The translations under genes were made by a program, and so were the position numbers. A DNA stretch of 20,000 bases from an uncultured virus (IMG/VR IMGVR_UViG_3300032167_006623) (lineage: Duplodnaviria; Heunggongvirae; Uroviricota; Caudoviricetes): IMG/VR virus record IMGVR_UViG_3300032167_006623; one strand, 5' to 3'. This document shows, one piece after another, positions 2,291-10,885 of this stretch (its first letter is position 1; every line of letters begins with the position of its first letter). The notes beneath the pieces are model-generated. The model was not told the DNA's origin, made no database searches, and saw nothing but the letters and a program-made list of their open reading frames with translations.

Positions 2291-2500
2291 ATGCCAGAAA
2301 TAAAATATCCTGTTGATATCGACAAATACAAAGATTTAGTCGATGAACCTGAAGACTCGGCTATACCTAAAAATGTCATCATTGTGACAAACAATGAAGC
2401 TAAAAGCAGAGAGATTATTGCTAAGGCAATGATTGAAATGTACTGGAAACAATTGAATGAAAAGAATAAGCAACTGAGTGAAAAAATGGGTGATAATTAA
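2291..2500 (+). CDS. Hypothetical protein
   Basis: MPEIKYPVDID...; AAGGGTGA RBS; terminator follows. Confidence 0.65.
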   Translation: MPEIKYPVDIDKYKDLVDEPEDSAIPKNVIIVTNNEAKSREIIAKAMIEMYWKQLNEKNKQLSEKMGDN

Positions 2501-2524
2501 AGCTATGCTTCGGCATAGCTTTTT
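2499..2524 (+). terminator. Intrinsic terminator
   Basis: AAAGCTATGC ttcg GCATAGCTTT TT. Confidence 0.8.
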
Positions 2525-2559
2525 CTTTACAACAAACAACGGCTGCATTTACGCAGCCG

Positions 2560-2651
2560 TTATTTGCTTGACAAAATAGAGATGGAAATCAAAACATTTC
2601 GTTACTCATTCGTCATTGTAACAAAATTTCAACACTTTGTCAAGCAAATAA
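2560..2651 (-). promoter_or_regulatory. Long inverted repeat carrying a minus-strand sigma-A consensus (Frpo-like or antisense promoter)
   Basis: TTATTTGCTTGACAAA / TTTGTCAAGCAAATAA arms; minus strand TTGACA(2643-2638)-N17-TACAAT(2620-2615). Confidence 0.55.
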
Positions 2652-2664
2652 TTGTGAACAATTA

Positions 2665-2734
2665 GCAAGCGTGACCGCTTGCCGGATTTGTAATAAAAAG
2701 AATAGTCAGCTGTAAAGACGTTAAAACAGAGAAA
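2665..2734 (+). promoter_or_regulatory. Hairpin element plus GTCAGCTG-GACGTTAAAACAGAG leader
   Basis: GCAAGCG tgac CGCTTGC CGG ATTTGTA ATAAAA; leader at 2705-2734. Confidence 0.75.
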
Positions 2735-2747
2735 TGGAGTGTATATC

Positions 2748-2885
2748 ATGTTTGAATATAAGATTTCTTATGAAGAAGCTGTTGAACAGTTTTTAAGCGA
2801 CCATCCTGAATTCTTTCCTACTGATATTGAATACTGTCCTGATGTATTCCGTCAGATGTGCGAAGAAACAGGCTATGTTGCATAA
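2748..2885 (+). CDS. Small acidic protein (45 aa; not in ORF track)
   Basis: MFEYKISYEEAVEQFLSDHPEFFPTDIEYCPDVFRQMCEETGYVA; GGAG RBS after the leader motif. Confidence 0.75.
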   Translation: MFEYKISYEEAVEQFLSDHPEFFPTDIEYCPDVFRQMCEETGYVA

Positions 2886-2889
2886 ACAC

Positions 2890-2928
2890 TCCGTATGTGA
2901 TACGGAAATACTCCGTATTACATACGGA
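2890..2928. repeat. Two TCCGTAT-N3-ATACGGA palindromes
   Basis: Same heptamer as the repeats inside 4661-5647. Confidence 0.7.
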
Positions 2929-2983
2929 TATTACTCTTAAATCTAAAGAAATTCCTTTTAAAAGTTTTTAAGAGGAATTTCTA

Positions 2984-3017
2984 TGCAGATTGAAATCTGC
3001 ACGGGTTTTATTTAAAG
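2984..3017 (+). promoter_or_regulatory. Hairpin-CGG-N7-TTAAAG element
   Basis: TGCAGAT tgaa ATCTGCA CGG GTTTTAT TTAAAG. Confidence 0.7.
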
Positions 3018-3020
3018 CTG

Positions 3021-3123
3021 ATTATTCACTGCGTACAGGCCGACTGTAGTCATCGTAAATGTCAAACAGGAGCAGCAAGTCACGTGTGCGGCACATTTTG
3101 CAGCATTTACCGTAGTGAATGAT
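3021..3123 (+). ncRNA. Putative structured leader RNA
   Basis: ATTATTCACTGCG/CGTAGTGAATGAT closing stem and inner GTAAATG/CATTTAC stem. Confidence 0.45.
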
Positions 3124-3151
3124 TATATAAAAGAAAGGATTGTGTATACTT

Positions 3152-3331
3152 ATGACTACTATTATTGCAATTTTTATGGTTCTTGTTATGGCTGCTGCTA
3201 ATTATGCAGTTTTCAATGCTGATGATGTAATGCTTCTCGAAGGTGAATACGAGGATTATTATGGCCGTGACGAGTCTGAACCAGAGGGTTGGACAGAAGA
3301 GATGGAAAAAGAATATTATGGTCTTGATTGA
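3152..3331 (+). CDS. Small protein with an N-terminal hydrophobic anchor and acidic tail
   Basis: MTTIIAIFMVLVMAAAN...EGEYEDYY; GAAAGGA RBS. Confidence 0.7.
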   Translation: MTTIIAIFMVLVMAAANYAVFNADDVMLLEGEYEDYYGRDESEPEGWTEEMEKEYYGLD

Positions 3332-3345
3332 AAGGAGTAATCACA

Positions 3346-3504
3346 ATGATTGAAGTATCAAAGATGTCCAAGAAAGCACAGAAAGAATATTACAGCAGAC
3401 AGCGTAATACATGGGGTTCTCTCTCCCCTGTTACACGTAAGCCTGCTAAGCCTCAGGCTTACAATCGTGCTAAAATGAAGTCAGCTCTCCGAGCTGACTT
3501 TTAA
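3346..3504 (+). CDS. Small basic protein (52 aa; not in ORF track), possibly ArfA/BrfA-like
   Basis: MIEVSKMSKKAQKEYYSRQRNTWGSLSPVTRKPAKPQAYNRAKMKSALRADF; AAAGGAG RBS. Confidence 0.75.
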   Translation: MIEVSKMSKKAQKEYYSRQRNTWGSLSPVTRKPAKPQAYNRAKMKSALRADF

Positions 3505-3512
3505 TTTTTTTT
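3478..3512 (+). terminator. Intrinsic terminator overlapping the last codons of 3346-3504
   Basis: AAGTCAGCTC tcc GAGCTGACTT TTAATTTTTTTT. Confidence 0.75.
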
Positions 3513-3571
3513 GTGTCTGTTTGTATGTCGTTTTGCATGTACGTATGTATGTCATAATGAATGTCAAAAAT

Positions 3572-3663
3572 AAACACCTGACGGTGTTTCGGATTTATTA
3601 TAAAAGAATTATAATTCTTTCTCCTGATAATAAGCGTGAACGCTTATCGGGTGTTTTTTAAAG
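3572..3663 (+). promoter_or_regulatory. Two tandem hairpin elements upstream of the ncRNA cluster
   Basis: AAACACC tgac GGTGTTT CGG ATTTATT ATAAAA (3572) and ATAAGCG tgaa CGCTTAT CGG GTGTTTT TTAAAG (3630). Confidence 0.75.
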
Positions 3664-3846
3664 AATGAAGTGGGACGATGGTCCATAGCTGTCATTCGCC
3701 GGGTCCGAATTGCCCGTGACAGGCTGCTCCTGTTGAAGAAATGTGTCGCATTCGCAAGCTTGGCAGTGGCTAATTAAGCTTGCAAATTGGTGTTAATGCT
3801 GAATTCGCAGATGAGTTTAACACCGACTGCATCGCAGTATAAACAA
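3663..3846 (+). ncRNA. Structured RNA repeat, copy 1
   Basis: Aligns with 3854-4045, with compensatory stem changes. Confidence 0.6.
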
Positions 3847-3853
3847 GCGATAA

Positions 3854-4045
3854 GAGTGAAGTGGGACGACGGTCCATAGCTGTCACTCGACAGGTACAGA
3901 TTGCCTGAGACAGCGCTCCTGTCTGAATAAGCGTTGCAGCCTTTGTAAGCATAGGCTGAGGAAATAAAGAAGCTTACAAAATTCATAACAGATACTGAAT
4001 CTGCAGGGTAACTCAGTTATGGACTGTTTTTAACAGTATAAACAA
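3854..4045 (+). ncRNA. Structured RNA repeat, copy 2
   Basis: Shared GAAGTGGGACGAYGGTCCATAGCTGTCAYTCG ... GCTCCTGT ... CTGAAT ... CAGTATAAACAA. Confidence 0.6.
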
Positions 4046-4071
4046 CAATCAGGCAGCATGACTGCCGATAT

Positions 4072-4185
4072 GGGAACATAGCTTAGCGGATAAAGCAAGT
4101 CTTTGTAAGGGGTTCAACTCCCCTATCATCAACGGATTTGATACATGGACAGTCTACGCGGGTTCGAATCCTGCTGTTCTCACCA
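4072..4185 (+). tRNA. tRNA-like RNA (114 nt) with no assignable anticodon
   Basis: Acceptor GGGAACA/TGTTCTC+ACCA, D arm GCTT-AGCGGATA-AAGC, T arm GCGGG-TTCGAAT-CCTGC; the anticodon arm is replaced by an expanded branched insert. Confidence 0.75.
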
Positions 4186-4342
4186 GAAGCTGTCAGCAAT
4201 TGCTGCCGTACGGGCAATGGAGTGCGTACGGAGCGCAGACGGCGTCGATTGTGCCTGCATGTGCCGAAATCAGTGCCTCCATGCAGGGCGTCGACTTAAT
4301 TAAGCTCATTACTCATTATATACATTCCTCTCTCTCCTTTCT

Positions 4343-4388
4343 GAATACACCGTATGTGCCCTCCCGCATACGGTGTATTTCTTTTTTT
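4343..4388 (+). terminator. Intrinsic terminator ending the ncRNA cluster
   Basis: GAATACACCGTATGTG ccctcc CGCATACGGTGTATTT CTTTTTTT. Confidence 0.8.
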
Positions 4389-4428
4389 CACATTGAAGCA
4401 TTACATGAAGCTTCAATGTGATATTTTT

Positions 4429-4596
4429 TTTGTATCAATATTGTAACAAAAATGGGTATCTTTTTGTTACAATATTGCACACTGATTTTTATTGTTACAA
4501 TATTGTAACAATAAAAGCACCAAAATTGATACAATTTTGTTACACGAACTTTTTTGCTACAATTTTGTTACAATTTTGGTGCAAAAATTGTTACAC
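4429..4596. repeat. TTGTWACAA repeat array 2
   Basis: Core TTGTAACAAAAATGGGTATCTTTTTGTTACAA at 4441-4472 plus further units. Confidence 0.85.
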
Positions 4597-4598
4597 CC

Positions 4599-4627
4599 TT
4601 GACATTTGGTGACAAATGTATTATAAT
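4599..4627 (+). promoter_or_regulatory. Consensus sigma-A promoter
   Basis: TTGACA-N17-TATAAT, perfect match. Confidence 0.9.
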
Positions 4628-4660
4628 GATACATATATCAAATTATGAAGGATGTGCATC

Positions 4661-5647
4661 ATGGGAAAAACAATAAAAGCAATAGCCGACGAACTCGGCA
4701 TATCCAAACAAGCTGTATACAAGCGTGTTACAGGCAAGCTTAACACCGTATGTGCTCCACATACATATATGGAGAACAACGTCATGTTTCTGGATGAAGA
4801 AGGCGAAGCTATTGTAAAAAATGATTTTAAAAATAAACCATGTGCTACTCCCCTATTTCGTACGGAGCAAATACTTATGTCATATGGAGCTAATACGTCA
4901 CCATATCCAAATCCAACGGTTCCTTACGTACAACATACGGAACAGATACGGAATAACTCCGATAATATGCCTCAAAATCCATACGGAGCACTCCCCTATC
5001 CTACTCCGAATCAATCCATTCAATACGTATCCAATACGGAGCATATCCAAACCACTCCTGTTTCAAATACGGAACACTCCGGCATTCCTATTCAAAACAC
5101 ATACGGAACACCGCAGCAATTCACTCCTAATCCGTATCCCAATCCGTATACGGAGCAATCCGTATCTAATCCTAATATGGATACGCATACGGAGCAAATA
5201 TCAATTCCTGATACGGAGCAAATACAACCGACATACGGAGCTGATACGGAAGATGTGAATTTATTACGTATGCAGCTTGAGGAAATCAAAGAAAAAAACC
5301 ATGAAACTGAGATTGAACTTGTTAAAGCTAATGCTGAAAAAGAGAAATATGAAGAAATAATCAATCAGCTTAACCAAAGACTCAAAGATAAAGATTCACA
5401 AATCATGGAACAGCGTTTGTTAATAGAAAAAACCGACAATGAACGTAAGATTTTAACGGCTTCATTGTTTAGAAACAATGAATTTTTAAGGAAGCTATTG
5501 CAGCTGCCGTTAGCTAAACGTATTTTTGATTGGAAAAATATCCAAAAACGACTGATGACAGAGCAGGATGACATTTCAAATGACATAATAGGGGAATCAG
5601 ATATTGATGTTTCACTATTTGATGAAAATATTAGTAAAAAGGATTGA
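4661..5647 (+). CDS. HTH + low-complexity linker + coiled-coil protein, pSK1 Par / DUF536-like plasmid maintenance protein
   Basis: N-terminus KTIKAIADELGISKQAVYKR (HTH), C-terminal coiled coil ending LAKRIF; GAAGGA RBS. Confidence 0.65.
   Translation: MGKTIKAIADELGISKQAVYKRVTGKLNTVCAPHTYMENNVMFLDEEGEAIVKNDFKNKPCATPLFRTEQILMSYGANTSPYPNPTVPYVQHTEQIRNNSDNMPQNPYGALPYPTPNQSIQYVSNTEHIQTTPVSNTEHSGIPIQNTYGTPQQFTPNPYPNPYTEQSVSNPNMDTHTEQISIPDTEQIQPTYGADTEDVNLLRMQLEEIKEKNHETEIELVKANAEKEKYEEIINQLNQRLKDKDSQIMEQRLLIEKTDNERKILTASLFRNNEFLRKLLQLPLAKRIFDWKNIQKRLMTEQDDISNDIIGESDIDVSLFDENISKKD
4935..5250. repeat. Intragenic ATACGGA iteron array
   Basis: 11 ATACGGA and 3 TCCGTAT copies counted; ATACGGA occurs in all three codon phases. 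Confidence 0.8.
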
Positions 5648-6241: not shown

Positions 6242-6931
6242 ATGAGAATCGCTGATACTATTGATATTTTTAAAGAAACTGCAGACGCTGTGTGTGTTAC
6301 TACAAATGGAATCGTTAAGCGTGACGGTTCAGCTGTAATGGGTGCAGGTATTGCAAGATTGGCTGATGCTAAATATAAGCTTGCATCAAAGCTTGGTGCA
6401 ATGCTTAGAAAATCAGGCAATCATTGCTATGATATGGGTCTTTATGATAATAAGCATATCGTTACTTTTCCAACCAAAAAACATTGGAAAGATATGAGCA
6501 GCATTACGCTCATTAAGCAAAGCTGTCATGAACTTGTAGCTATGGCTGACAAGAACAACTGGAGTAATGTTTTGCTGCCGGCTATAGGCTGTGGTCTTGG
6601 TCAGCTTGATTTTGAGACACAGGTAAAGCCTGCAATCGAGACTATTCTTGATGACAGATTTACAATTTGTTTTCTCACCAACGCCCGCCAGTCTGATAAA
6701 GCAGGGGAGTGTGCTGATAAAAAATTCGAGCATAACGGTTATGTGATTTCCCAGTGCGGAAGCAATCATCATGTTATGATTTCCAAGGATGGAAAGATGG
6801 TATTTCATTCACAGGTTGACCACGATATGAACCGTGAAGAACTCATCAAAGTTTTTGACGGCTATATCGAGCTCACAAAACACATTGATTTTGCCAAAGA
6901 GTTTTACAGAAATGAAGGGAGAATAGATTAA
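6242..6931 (+). CDS. Macrodomain (ADP-ribose binding/hydrolase) protein with extra C-terminal domain
   Basis: TTNG..VMGAGIA, FPTKKHW, LPAIGCGLGQL motifs. Confidence 0.85.
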   Translation: MRIADTIDIFKETADAVCVTTNGIVKRDGSAVMGAGIARLADAKYKLASKLGAMLRKSGNHCYDMGLYDNKHIVTFPTKKHWKDMSSITLIKQSCHELVAMADKNNWSNVLLPAIGCGLGQLDFETQVKPAIETILDDRFTICFLTNARQSDKAGECADKKFEHNGYVISQCGSNHHVMISKDGKMVFHSQVDHDMNREELIKVFDGYIELTKHIDFAKEFYRNEGRID

Positions 6932-10459: not shown

Positions 10460-10885
10460 ATGGCAAGCTTCAGAGGAGAAAAATACTTTTTAAGCAATAT
10501 GTACCCATGTCCTGTGACTATTAAGATTAAAGGTGAGCTTATTACCTTTAAAAGCTCTGAGTCCGTATTTCAGGCACTTCGCAGCCCTGACCGTCTCAGA
10601 GAATTTATTCCGCTCAATGGCTTTGAAGCGAAAAAACACGCTAAAAGCTGTACACGTCGTGCTGATTGGTTTGATGTGAGCCTTGATGTAATGATGTATG
10701 CACTCAGATGCAAATTTACCCAAAATCCTGACCTTGCGGCAAAGCTCATAGCCATTGATGATGACATTGTGGAAATCAATGAATGGCATGATACTTTTTG
10801 GGGCGTTTGTAATGGAGTAGGGGAGAACCATTTGGGCAAATTGCTTATGCAGCTCAGAGACGAGCTTCGAGCAGCGGCTCATTAA
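10460..10885 (+). CDS. NADAR (YbiA-like) family protein
   Basis: FLSNMY, SSESVFQA, KFTQNPDL, E.N.WHDTFWG, GENHLGKLLM.LR. Confidence 0.9.
   Translation: MASFRGEKYFLSNMYPCPVTIKIKGELITFKSSESVFQALRSPDRLREFIPLNGFEAKKHAKSCTRRADWFDVSLDVMMYALRCKFTQNPDLAAKLIAIDDDIVEINEWHDTFWGVCNGVGENHLGKLLMQLRDELRAAAH

Follow-up and report, generated by a model that had tools for sequence, protein, structure and literature searches.

The tRNAs of Lak megaphages carry introns that were termed 'enigmatic', among them one in tRNA-Tyr(GTA), and the intron of a Lak tRNA-Thr 'may encode a tRNA' (Devoto et al. 2019, PMC6784885). Intron-free alleles exist for another Lak tRNA (Devoto et al. 2019, PMC6784885). As read here from Table S6 of the same report (PMC6784885), the Lak Tyr, Phe and Gly introns form an acceptor-like stem around a T-arm hairpin. 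A literature search for nested tRNAs and for minihelix or T-arm introns in phages, whose scope left out bioRxiv supplements and non-open papers, returned nothing beyond Devoto 2019. Large structured phage RNAs are a further point of reference, and a preprint places tRNAs in the GOLLD linker in some cases (bioRxiv 10.1101/2024.12.08.627333).

The tRNA-shaped gene described here has an insert in its anticodon loop and lies at positions 4072-4185 of the + strand in a 20,000-nucleotide stretch of DNA from an uncultured virus (IMG/VR record IMGVR_UViG_3300032167_006623), which is referred to as the window. This unusual feature is genuine, is transcribed and far exceeds what chance would produce. 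It is an instance of a phenomenon already in print, that of phage tRNA genes with short inserts that are not self-splicing, which is rare and still unexplained.

A tRNA body with an interrupted anticodon loop

The gene spans 114 nt including an encoded CCA and has an intact acceptor stem (4072-4078/4175-4181, +), D arm (4081-4096, +) and T arm (4158-4174, +), followed by A73 (4182, +) and CCA (4183-4185, +), which confirms the intact acceptor stem, D arm, T arm and encoded CCA of the sequence-only reading. The tRNA core further includes GG in the D arm, UUCGAAU in the T arm, U8 and the G10-C25 pair, while the anomalies of the body are an A27/A43 mismatch and a variable loop of 6 nt. The sequence-only reading had proposed checking the gene with ARAGORN and with Infernal against Rfam. 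The Rfam covariance model for tRNA (RF00005) matches 4072-4182 with 43.2 bits (gathering cut-off 29, E 2.3e-6) and aligns the excess of ~40 nt in the anticodon region as an insertion, which makes this gene the sole gathering-level Rfam match across the 20 kb. ARAGORN in default mode was silent, calling no tRNA gene in the window as encoded, and made no tmRNA call for the gene.

As encoded, 44 nt lie between the strands of the anticodon stem instead of a 7-nt loop on a 5-bp stem. The minimum free energy (MFE) fold of the gene reproduces the architecture that had been described for it, at -31.6 kcal/mol (z -2.05, 3 of 200 shuffles as good), which is 10 kcal/mol lower than the -21.4 kcal/mol of a cloverleaf with a normal anticodon arm, and the ensemble pair probability of a normal anticodon arm is ~0. 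Two other ways of reading the gene as a tRNA were rejected. One, the proposal of ARAGORN when introns are allowed, is a tRNA-Thr(tgt) that combines a long variable arm with an intron of 26 nt and needs a stem with a pair probability of 0.03, and a class-II reading with the anticodon arm AGUCU/GGGUU has a pair probability of ~0 and is 10 kcal/mol worse.

The hairpins of the insert

The stem that had been proposed to enclose the extra module, read as GTCT/GGAC (4099-4102/4147-4150, +) and TGTA/TACA (4104-4107/4142-4145, +), is present in the fold as a 9-bp extended 'anticodon' stem, GUCU-U-UGUA/UACA-U-GGAC, that carries both hairpins of the insert on top. Its 5' strand (4099-4107, +) contains U33, G34, U35 and A36 and pairs with 4142-4150 at probabilities of 0.30-0.55. 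The first of the two hairpins, AGGGG-UUCAACU-CCCCU (4108-4124, +), is the second T-like hairpin that the sequence-only reading had recognised in the anticodon region, and this assignment holds, as the hairpin has the exact T-loop consensus and a 5-bp stem with pair probabilities of 0.91-0.99; it is unchanged in the sole variant contig that spans it. The consensus GGTTCRANTCC occurs exactly twice in the 20 kb, once in the true T arm and once in the insert, where 0.04 copies are expected and none of 200 shuffles contained two. No further copy of the 37-nt insert was found elsewhere in the window.

The second hairpin, AUCAA-CGGAU-UUGAU (4128-4142, +), is part of the MFE fold with pair probabilities of 0.18-0.38 and has analogues in two other phage loci (L119 and L255, see below). 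T4142 is assigned both to the TGTA/TACA stem and to this 5-bp hairpin, so one of the two pairs must give way. The hairpin had been taken for a D arm, giving a permuted order of T then D. Its presence behind the T-like hairpin stands, if weakly, but its identity as a D arm is not convincing, since only CGGAT is shared and since in L119 and L255 the hairpin that directly follows the T-like one lacks a GG loop. The hairpin reads better as a capped acceptor-like stem. The 7 nt following the T-like hairpin pair in the fold with downstream and not with upstream sequence, which closes them into a capped hairpin. A 7-bp acceptor-like stem around the T arm with a discriminator (and CCA) was not found in the insert by the screen that was also applied to the IMG/VR loci described below. 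The insert looks like a circular permutation of an open minihelix, in the order T arm, 3' strand, cap loop and 5' strand.

The anticodon before and after removal of the insert

In the predicted fold of the primary transcript U33-G34-U35-A36 is paired with UACA of the insert, and the insert-bearing RNA would be unable to decode because its GUA triplet is paired with UAC of the insert. Removal in silico of a 37-nt segment at 4109-4145 (+), which corresponds to the canonical 37/38 register with registers shifted by up to 3-4 nt being equally possible, leaves the 7-nt loop UUGUAAU, which keeps U33 and A37, in a product with a cloverleaf fold. When the 37-nt deletion is placed in registers 2-5, ARAGORN in default mode calls a standard tRNA in 4/4 cases (Tyr-gta, Asp-gtc, Val-gac and Val-tac), calls that are weaker than they sound because the borders were chosen to leave 7 nt; the non-trivial features of the restored loop are U33 and A37 only. 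The earlier claim that the RNA has no anticodon is thus correct for the transcript, in which GUA is buried in a helix, and incorrect once the 37 nt are removed.

The insert is too short to be self-splicing, as had been pointed out, and Rfam intron or ribozyme families had no match at E<=5 in 2300-4800. A group I tRNA intron was rejected, as the insert of 37 nt compares with a catalytic core of ~200 nt or more and no Rfam match was obtained at E<=5. For a bulge-helix-bulge (BHB) intron of the archaeal or eukaryal type, defined by two 3-nt bulges, a 4-bp helix and flanking helices, a script scan returned neither a full-flank motif nor a sensible tRNA product, and the closest relatives of the single-stranded DNA-binding protein (SSB) encoded in the window are phages of Bacillota. 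Cuts of the RNase III or RNase P type measured from the inner T loop would, by reasoning only, yield no usable tRNA.

The noncoding locus and its surroundings

No convincing open reading frame was found in 3505-4651, and, going by the ARAGORN and Rfam results, the tRNA-like gene is alone there and not a member of a tRNA array. Upstream of it lie two copies of a structured RNA module, A1 (3661-3800, +) and A2 (3852-3990, +), which are direct repeats of each other with 84% identity over 62 nt and a 26-nt core that is found twice where 0 copies are expected. A2 has a fold z of -2.73, and in the fold common to A1 and A2 3 of 24 pairs are compensatory. A small leader hairpin, read by eye with its stem listed on the other strand, occupies 4050-4067 (+) just 5' of the tRNA-like gene, which has T at position -1 (4071). 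Downstream, RNA B (4186-4300, +) forms two long hairpins with a predicted energy of -52.8 kcal/mol (z -3.46, 0/200 shuffles as good), and an intrinsic-terminator-like hairpin with a T run (4343-4380, +) closes the noncoding unit. A1, A2, the tRNA-like gene and B together make up a structured noncoding unit of ~0.7 kb with the tRNA-like gene in the middle.

The A1 and A2 modules and 4186-4300 match no Rfam family. Among the specific candidates, YrlA (RF02553) gave no match at E<=5, nor did the flanks as GOLLD (RF02032) or ROOL at the same threshold, where the positive control, L124, scored 253.8 bits with GOLLD; no ribozyme family in Rfam, HDV-like or other, matched the downstream RNA at E<=5.

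The window contains many short genes on the + strand, with PHROG and Pfam matches to a Macro-domain phosphatase, NADAR, RNase H1, SSB and DUF6075, and looks like a phage region. Protein family searches revealed no ligase or endonuclease gene in the window and no integrase gene. The host is very likely bacterial and probably a species of Bacillota, judging from strong Shine-Dalgarno sites, a TTGACA-17-TATAAT promoter, T-run terminators and the SSB, whose 466 tblastn matches fall mostly in phages of Staphylococcus, Streptococcus, Listeria, Clostridium and Bacillus. The promoter, a perfect TTGACA-17-TATAAT at 4599-4627, serves the gene at 4652-5647, which has a weak helix-turn-helix (HTH) match. 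At 4430-4595, just upstream of this promoter, there are at least 4 copies of an inverted-repeat box of the TTGTAACAA type, and a related box is located at 2615-2638; the boxes at 4430-4595 look like an operator array. The Macro-domain gene (6242-6931) and the NADAR-domain gene (10460-10885) lie a few kb downstream of the RNA locus. A role in counter-defence is possible because both domains are linked to ADP-ribose handling.

Coverage in RNA libraries and strain differences

Of 24 runs listed, 20 contain the stretch; these come from 15 studies of animal gut, faeces or rumen, and 3 of them are metatranscriptomes. Four runs were compared over 3450-4700 as contigs rather than reads, namely the RNA runs X18, X19 and X20 and the run X15, which is presumably DNA. 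The RNA-run contigs are confined to about 3615-4305 (3615-4008 in X18, 3707-4107 and 4144-4305 in X19, 3684-4087 and 4094-4297 in X20) and cover A1, A2 and B, while X15 also covers 3450-3601. This distribution is a weak hint that the ~0.7-kb unit is transcribed. The X20 contig at 4094-4297 carries the whole insert at a depth of 4.36, comparable with the 6.78 of the neighbouring contig. A joined (spliced) contig was absent from the 3 RNA runs, in which contigs drop rare forms such as a spliced tRNA and cannot show mature RNA ends. Cover is interrupted in X19 at 4108-4143, close to the insert borders, and in X15 at 4112-4134 and at other places, but these gaps prove nothing because the depth is ~3-6, because X15 has gaps elsewhere and because contigs under ~150 nt are seemingly absent.

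Four differences between strains fall within the tRNA-like gene. Three of them, all in X20, affect unpaired positions in the linker (4127 C>T), the U/U mismatch (4146 T>C) and the variable loop (4154 C>A). The fourth, 4160 G>A (X20, X19 and X15), converts the G.U pair with 4172 to A-U. In the downstream RNA, 4211 C>T occurs together with 4226 G>A in X19 and X20, a compensatory change from a C-G to a U-A pair. Changes amount to 1 in the 37 nt of the insert versus about 4-6% in the flanks, a comparison that is too thin to show constraint.

Relatives and other phage tRNA genes with inserts

No homologue of the locus was found with 3600-4650 as the blastn query against INPHARED, or with exact and IUPAC patterns (the insert junction, the A core and both exons) in IMG/VR, JGI metagenomes and GTDB genomes. 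The 14 loci obtained from one JGI metagenome scan and a GTDB scan have only the T-arm word in common with the window and not its flanks; of the 6 loci from an IMG/VR pattern scan, 2 are tRNAs with the D arm alone in common and 4 are not tRNAs. Routes through neighbouring proteins led to no confirmed relative and to 2 unannotated fragments. A covariance model built from the single sequence and run over 297 loci and the window gave a self score of 146.3 bits, a best non-self score of 43.0 bits (L255) and 42.1 bits for an ordinary tRNA, so that L255 does no better than ordinary tRNAs. The sequence-only reading had looked to homologues for covariation in the insert; with none in any collection searched, the insert has no covariation support, and there were no relatives that could carry insert-free alleles.

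Three scans of IMG/VR for two T loops 25-50 nt apart yielded at least 123, 80 and 105 stretches, representing at least 289 distinct loci, and a screen for a complete outer cloverleaf left at least 31 and 7 candidates besides the window. Many of the other loci with two T loops look like ordinary neighbours or duplicated tRNA ends. Among the matches listed there is a clear class of genes that have either a whole tRNA or a 'minihelix' within the anticodon loop, the minihelix being made up of an acceptor-like stem of 7 bp, a connector, a T arm, a discriminator and, in most cases, CCA. The inner stem is present in at least 10 loci (L023, L065, L071, L099, L160, L165, L166, L223, L293 and L297); L287 repeats L071 and was not counted, and L223, L293 and L297 were parsed by hand. 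L116 was also assigned to this group of phage tRNA genes with a whole tRNA or a minihelix in the anticodon loop.

Once the minihelix is removed, 8 of these 10 loci among the matches listed recover a loop of exactly 7 nt that has U33 and a purine at 37, the exceptions being L023 and L293. The cut that achieves this lies after the discriminator plus 3 nt in 7 of the restoring loci and after the discriminator in L099. All eight restored genes (L065, L071, L099, L160, L165, L166, L223 and L297) are normal tRNAs by ARAGORN, for Arg, Ile, Gln (twice), Leu, Pro and Asn (twice), and the restored UUG anticodon of L160 appears to fit its outer Gln-like D arm and G73. The CCA of the minihelix suggests that such inserts may be excised by RNase P and a 3' endonuclease, with sealing by a 3'-OH/5'-P ligase.

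Two unrelated loci of huge phages, L119 (37.0 bits, 362-kb contig) and L255 (49.5 bits, 271-kb contig), score above the Rfam tRNA cut-off and have a T hairpin followed by a second hairpin; judged by eye, removal of the insert leaves no canonical loop in L255 and only a poor one in L119. In L124 (1290-1876), a gap of 7 nt separates a GOLLD RNA (253.8 bits) from the tRNA-like gene that comes next (41.8 bits), beyond which lies a normal tRNA; this tRNA-like gene bears an additional T-like hairpin and lacks a normal anticodon loop. The tRNA-like gene of L074 is located inside a noncoding stretch of at least 840 nt. The flanks of the window have no sequence similarity to those of L124 or L125.

Other tRNA-like arrangements were seen in the course of the survey. 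L125 (reverse strand) holds, ~300 nt downstream of the L074 tRNA-like gene, a free-standing mini-tRNA in a noncoding region of at least 840 nt, in which a connector links an acceptor-like stem of 7 bp (TAGCAAG/CTTGCTA) and a T-arm hairpin. A tRNA-like sequence at 140-239 of L067 (reverse strand, 41.2 bits) seemingly comprises two tandem units of D arm, short linker and T arm and has no anticodon arm. L080, L149, L152, L171, L185 and L191 form a conserved insert-bearing tRNA-like family with the acceptor CGGAACG that occurs in several IMG/VR contigs; a T-like hairpin opens its anticodon region, and its scores of 34-41 bits with the window's model reflect similarity of the tRNA core only.

Possible fates and roles of the RNA

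The explanation placed first, tentatively and with slightly more doubt than belief, is that the tRNA-like gene is a class-I tRNA derivative with a remnant anticodon of the Tyr-GUA type, and that it gives rise to an unspliced, non-decoding, tRNA-shaped RNA that is released by tRNA processing and also punctuates the flanking RNAs. The anticodon loop would now carry a 37-nt module made up of the T-arm hairpin and the small capped hairpin on the 9-bp extension of the anticodon stem, and the gene would be transcribed as the middle part of the ~0.7-kb locus. Host RNase P would most likely cut at 4071/4072 using the intact acceptor, T and D core, and with 3' trimming to the encoded CCA this would separate the flanking RNAs and free a stable tRNA-shaped RNA of ~114 nt. 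A role as a processing signal is plausible because the gene sits between other structured RNAs. The freed RNA would have two surfaces that resemble an acceptor/T-arm 'minihelix', one real and one closed, and could serve as a structural module of a larger RNA or, for factors that bind the T arm or elbow, as a mimic, adaptor or decoy.

This non-decoding RNA is ranked first because the insert is without the features of the class that restores its loops exactly, because L119 and L255 restore theirs poorly, because the gene stands alone in a noncoding locus and because the insert-bearing form is present in an RNA library, although none of these points is decisive. It is also supported by a tRNA core that scores above the Rfam cut-off, by the exact T-loop consensus of the T-like hairpin, by the lack of a joined contig in the 3 RNA runs, by the 10 kcal/mol advantage of the insert-bearing fold, by the four in-gene strain differences, which fall at unpaired positions or turn G.U into A-U, by the structured flanks with their compensatory changes and the limitation of RNA contigs to ~3615-4305, by the GOLLD-adjoining tRNA-like gene of L124 with its extra T-like hairpin, and by a window that is without a ligase or endonuclease and has Macro, NADAR and RNase H1 among its neighbours. 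Against it, the lack of homologues leaves the insert without covariation support, the X19 contigs stop at 4107 and restart at 4144 as processing at the borders would predict, U33, the GUA triplet, A37 and a usable anticodon stem have all been retained, and there are precedents for real inserts in phage tRNAs.

These last points lead to the main alternative, which we consider unlikely, if the least unlikely of the competitors, namely that this is a true interrupted tRNA gene whose insert is a protein-dependent mini-intron of 37 nt. It would be removed by an uncharacterised cut-and-rejoin pathway involving a phage or host endonuclease and an RNA ligase, and the product would decode Tyr-GUA (37/38 cut) or else Val or Asp. 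The position of the insert in the anticodon loop, the 7-nt loop with U33 and A37 and the cloverleaf that its removal leaves, the ARAGORN calls in all four registers and the X19 contig breaks fit such an intron, as does the regaining of exact loops by 8/10 minihelix-interrupted IMG/VR genes among the matches listed, with 8/8 then being normal tRNAs; the restoration of a 7-nt loop is nevertheless trivial here, the borders having been chosen to fit. The Lak tRNA-Tyr(GTA) intron at the same place, which has a T-arm hairpin, and the intron-free alleles known for another Lak tRNA are further support (PMC6784885). Set against this are an insert with no open acceptor-like stem or CCA by its T hairpin, no BHB motif and no ribozyme or intron family, a body with an A27/A43 mismatch and a 6-nt variable loop, a gene that stands alone in a noncoding RNA locus instead of in a tRNA array and, as weak evidence, the absence of a joined contig from the 3 RNA runs. 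A class-I body, moreover, would not fit bacterial Tyr identity.

It is improbable that the gene serves a larger RNA assembly as a structural or cargo module that stays covalently linked to A1/A2 and B, as the GOLLD linker tRNAs do, with the extra T loop making tertiary or quaternary RNA-RNA contacts. RNA contigs that cross both tRNA borders (3707-4107 and 4094-4297), a ~0.7-kb locus that is structured throughout, the tRNA-like genes of L124, 7 nt from GOLLD, and L074, in its noncoding stretch of at least 840 nt, and the GOLLD linker tRNAs in print (10.1101/2024.12.08.627333) all agree with such a module. The locus, however, has no match to GOLLD, ROOL or another large-RNA Rfam family at E<=5 and no similarity to the flanks of L124 or L125, the border-bridging contigs may be mere precursors, and the encoded CCA and U-1 fit processing. 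An equally doubtful origin is that of a decaying pseudogene or recombination scar, in which a fragment from the 3' end of another tRNA (a T arm with ATCATCA-A, such as the core of an old attachment site) broke up a tRNA gene that is now without a function of its own. The T-like hairpin is indeed followed by 7 nt and A that could be an acceptor 3' strand with its discriminator, many of the IMG/VR loci with two T loops look like such duplications, and the body has small anomalies (A/A mismatch, 6-nt variable loop). Yet the T hairpin is preserved along with every position of the tRNA core, differences between strains leave pairs alone or restore them, the gene is part of an RNA-covered, terminator-bounded noncoding unit in a window with no integrase, and the putative acceptor strand forms a hairpin with the strand downstream of it. 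There is a slim but real chance that the capped-minihelix chimeras (the window gene, L119 and L255) are circularly permuted, end-capped mini-tRNA elements, an undescribed class of two-headed tRNA mimics from large phages that would be processed by RNase P and would occupy or mislead host readers of the T arm or elbow such as tRNA-directed defence nucleases; the window gene has Macro and NADAR genes as neighbours.

Comparison with known systems

With a canonical tRNA (RF00005) the gene has the core elements in common, but it has 44 nt where a 7-nt anticodon loop belongs. It shares the anticodon-loop position of the insert and the pairing between anticodon and insert with archaeal and eukaryal 37/38 introns and with bacterial group I tRNA introns, and differs from them in having no BHB motif, a bacterial host and 37 nt with no group I match. 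Like the open minihelix inserts of the survey (L065, L071, L099, L160, L165, L166, L223 and L297), the window's insert places a T-arm hairpin in the anticodon loop of an otherwise complete phage tRNA, whereas those of the survey additionally possess an acceptor-like stem of 7 bp with a discriminator and, in most cases, CCA, which the window's insert lacks. The tRNA-like domain of YrlA and other bacterial Y RNAs (RF02553) is a permuted tRNA mimic with a long stem that carries a T arm and a closed acceptor-like hairpin. The capped T-hairpin layout of the insert recalls this design. Unlike in YrlA, the inner module has no D arm and lies within a complete tRNA, and there is no Rsr/Ro gene in its vicinity. 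Like the tRNAs beside or inside the GOLLD and ROOL phage RNAs, as described in the preprint (10.1101/2024.12.08.627333), the gene is embedded in large structured noncoding RNA; unlike in those cases, the flanking RNAs of the window match neither model.

The closest comparison is with the Lak introns (PMC6784885). In both cases a tRNA gene of a gut phage is interrupted in the anticodon loop at or next to 37/38, and both the Lak introns and the window's insert belong to no Rfam family and have no known removal mechanism (PMC6784885). The class-I-looking Lak tRNA-Tyr(GTA) has a similar acceptor (GGGAAYA in Lak) and likewise a T-arm-like hairpin in its intron (PMC6784885). Lak introns are mostly 79-141 nt long and combine a 5' hairpin and an A-rich linker with a T arm enclosed in an open acceptor-like stem (PMC6784885), whereas the window's insert has 37 nt, no open acceptor stem and a T hairpin that is followed by a capped hairpin. 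The Lak host is Prevotella (PMC6784885), in contrast to the Bacillota signals of the window, and the comparison is one of layout, with no sequence homology shown. The open-minihelix class is in essence already in print (Devoto 2019, PMC6784885), and to this class the survey adds a testable rule, according to which removal of the acceptor/T-arm/CCA minihelix restores the anticodon loop exactly. If such inserts are cut out, they point to a bacterial or phage pathway of tRNA splicing, and if they are kept, to a new family of tRNA mimics. Inserts of this kind have been published since 2019 with no mechanism; what the present locus adds is a layout of T-arm hairpin and capped hairpin in an expressed, structured RNA locus of a Bacillota-type gut phage.
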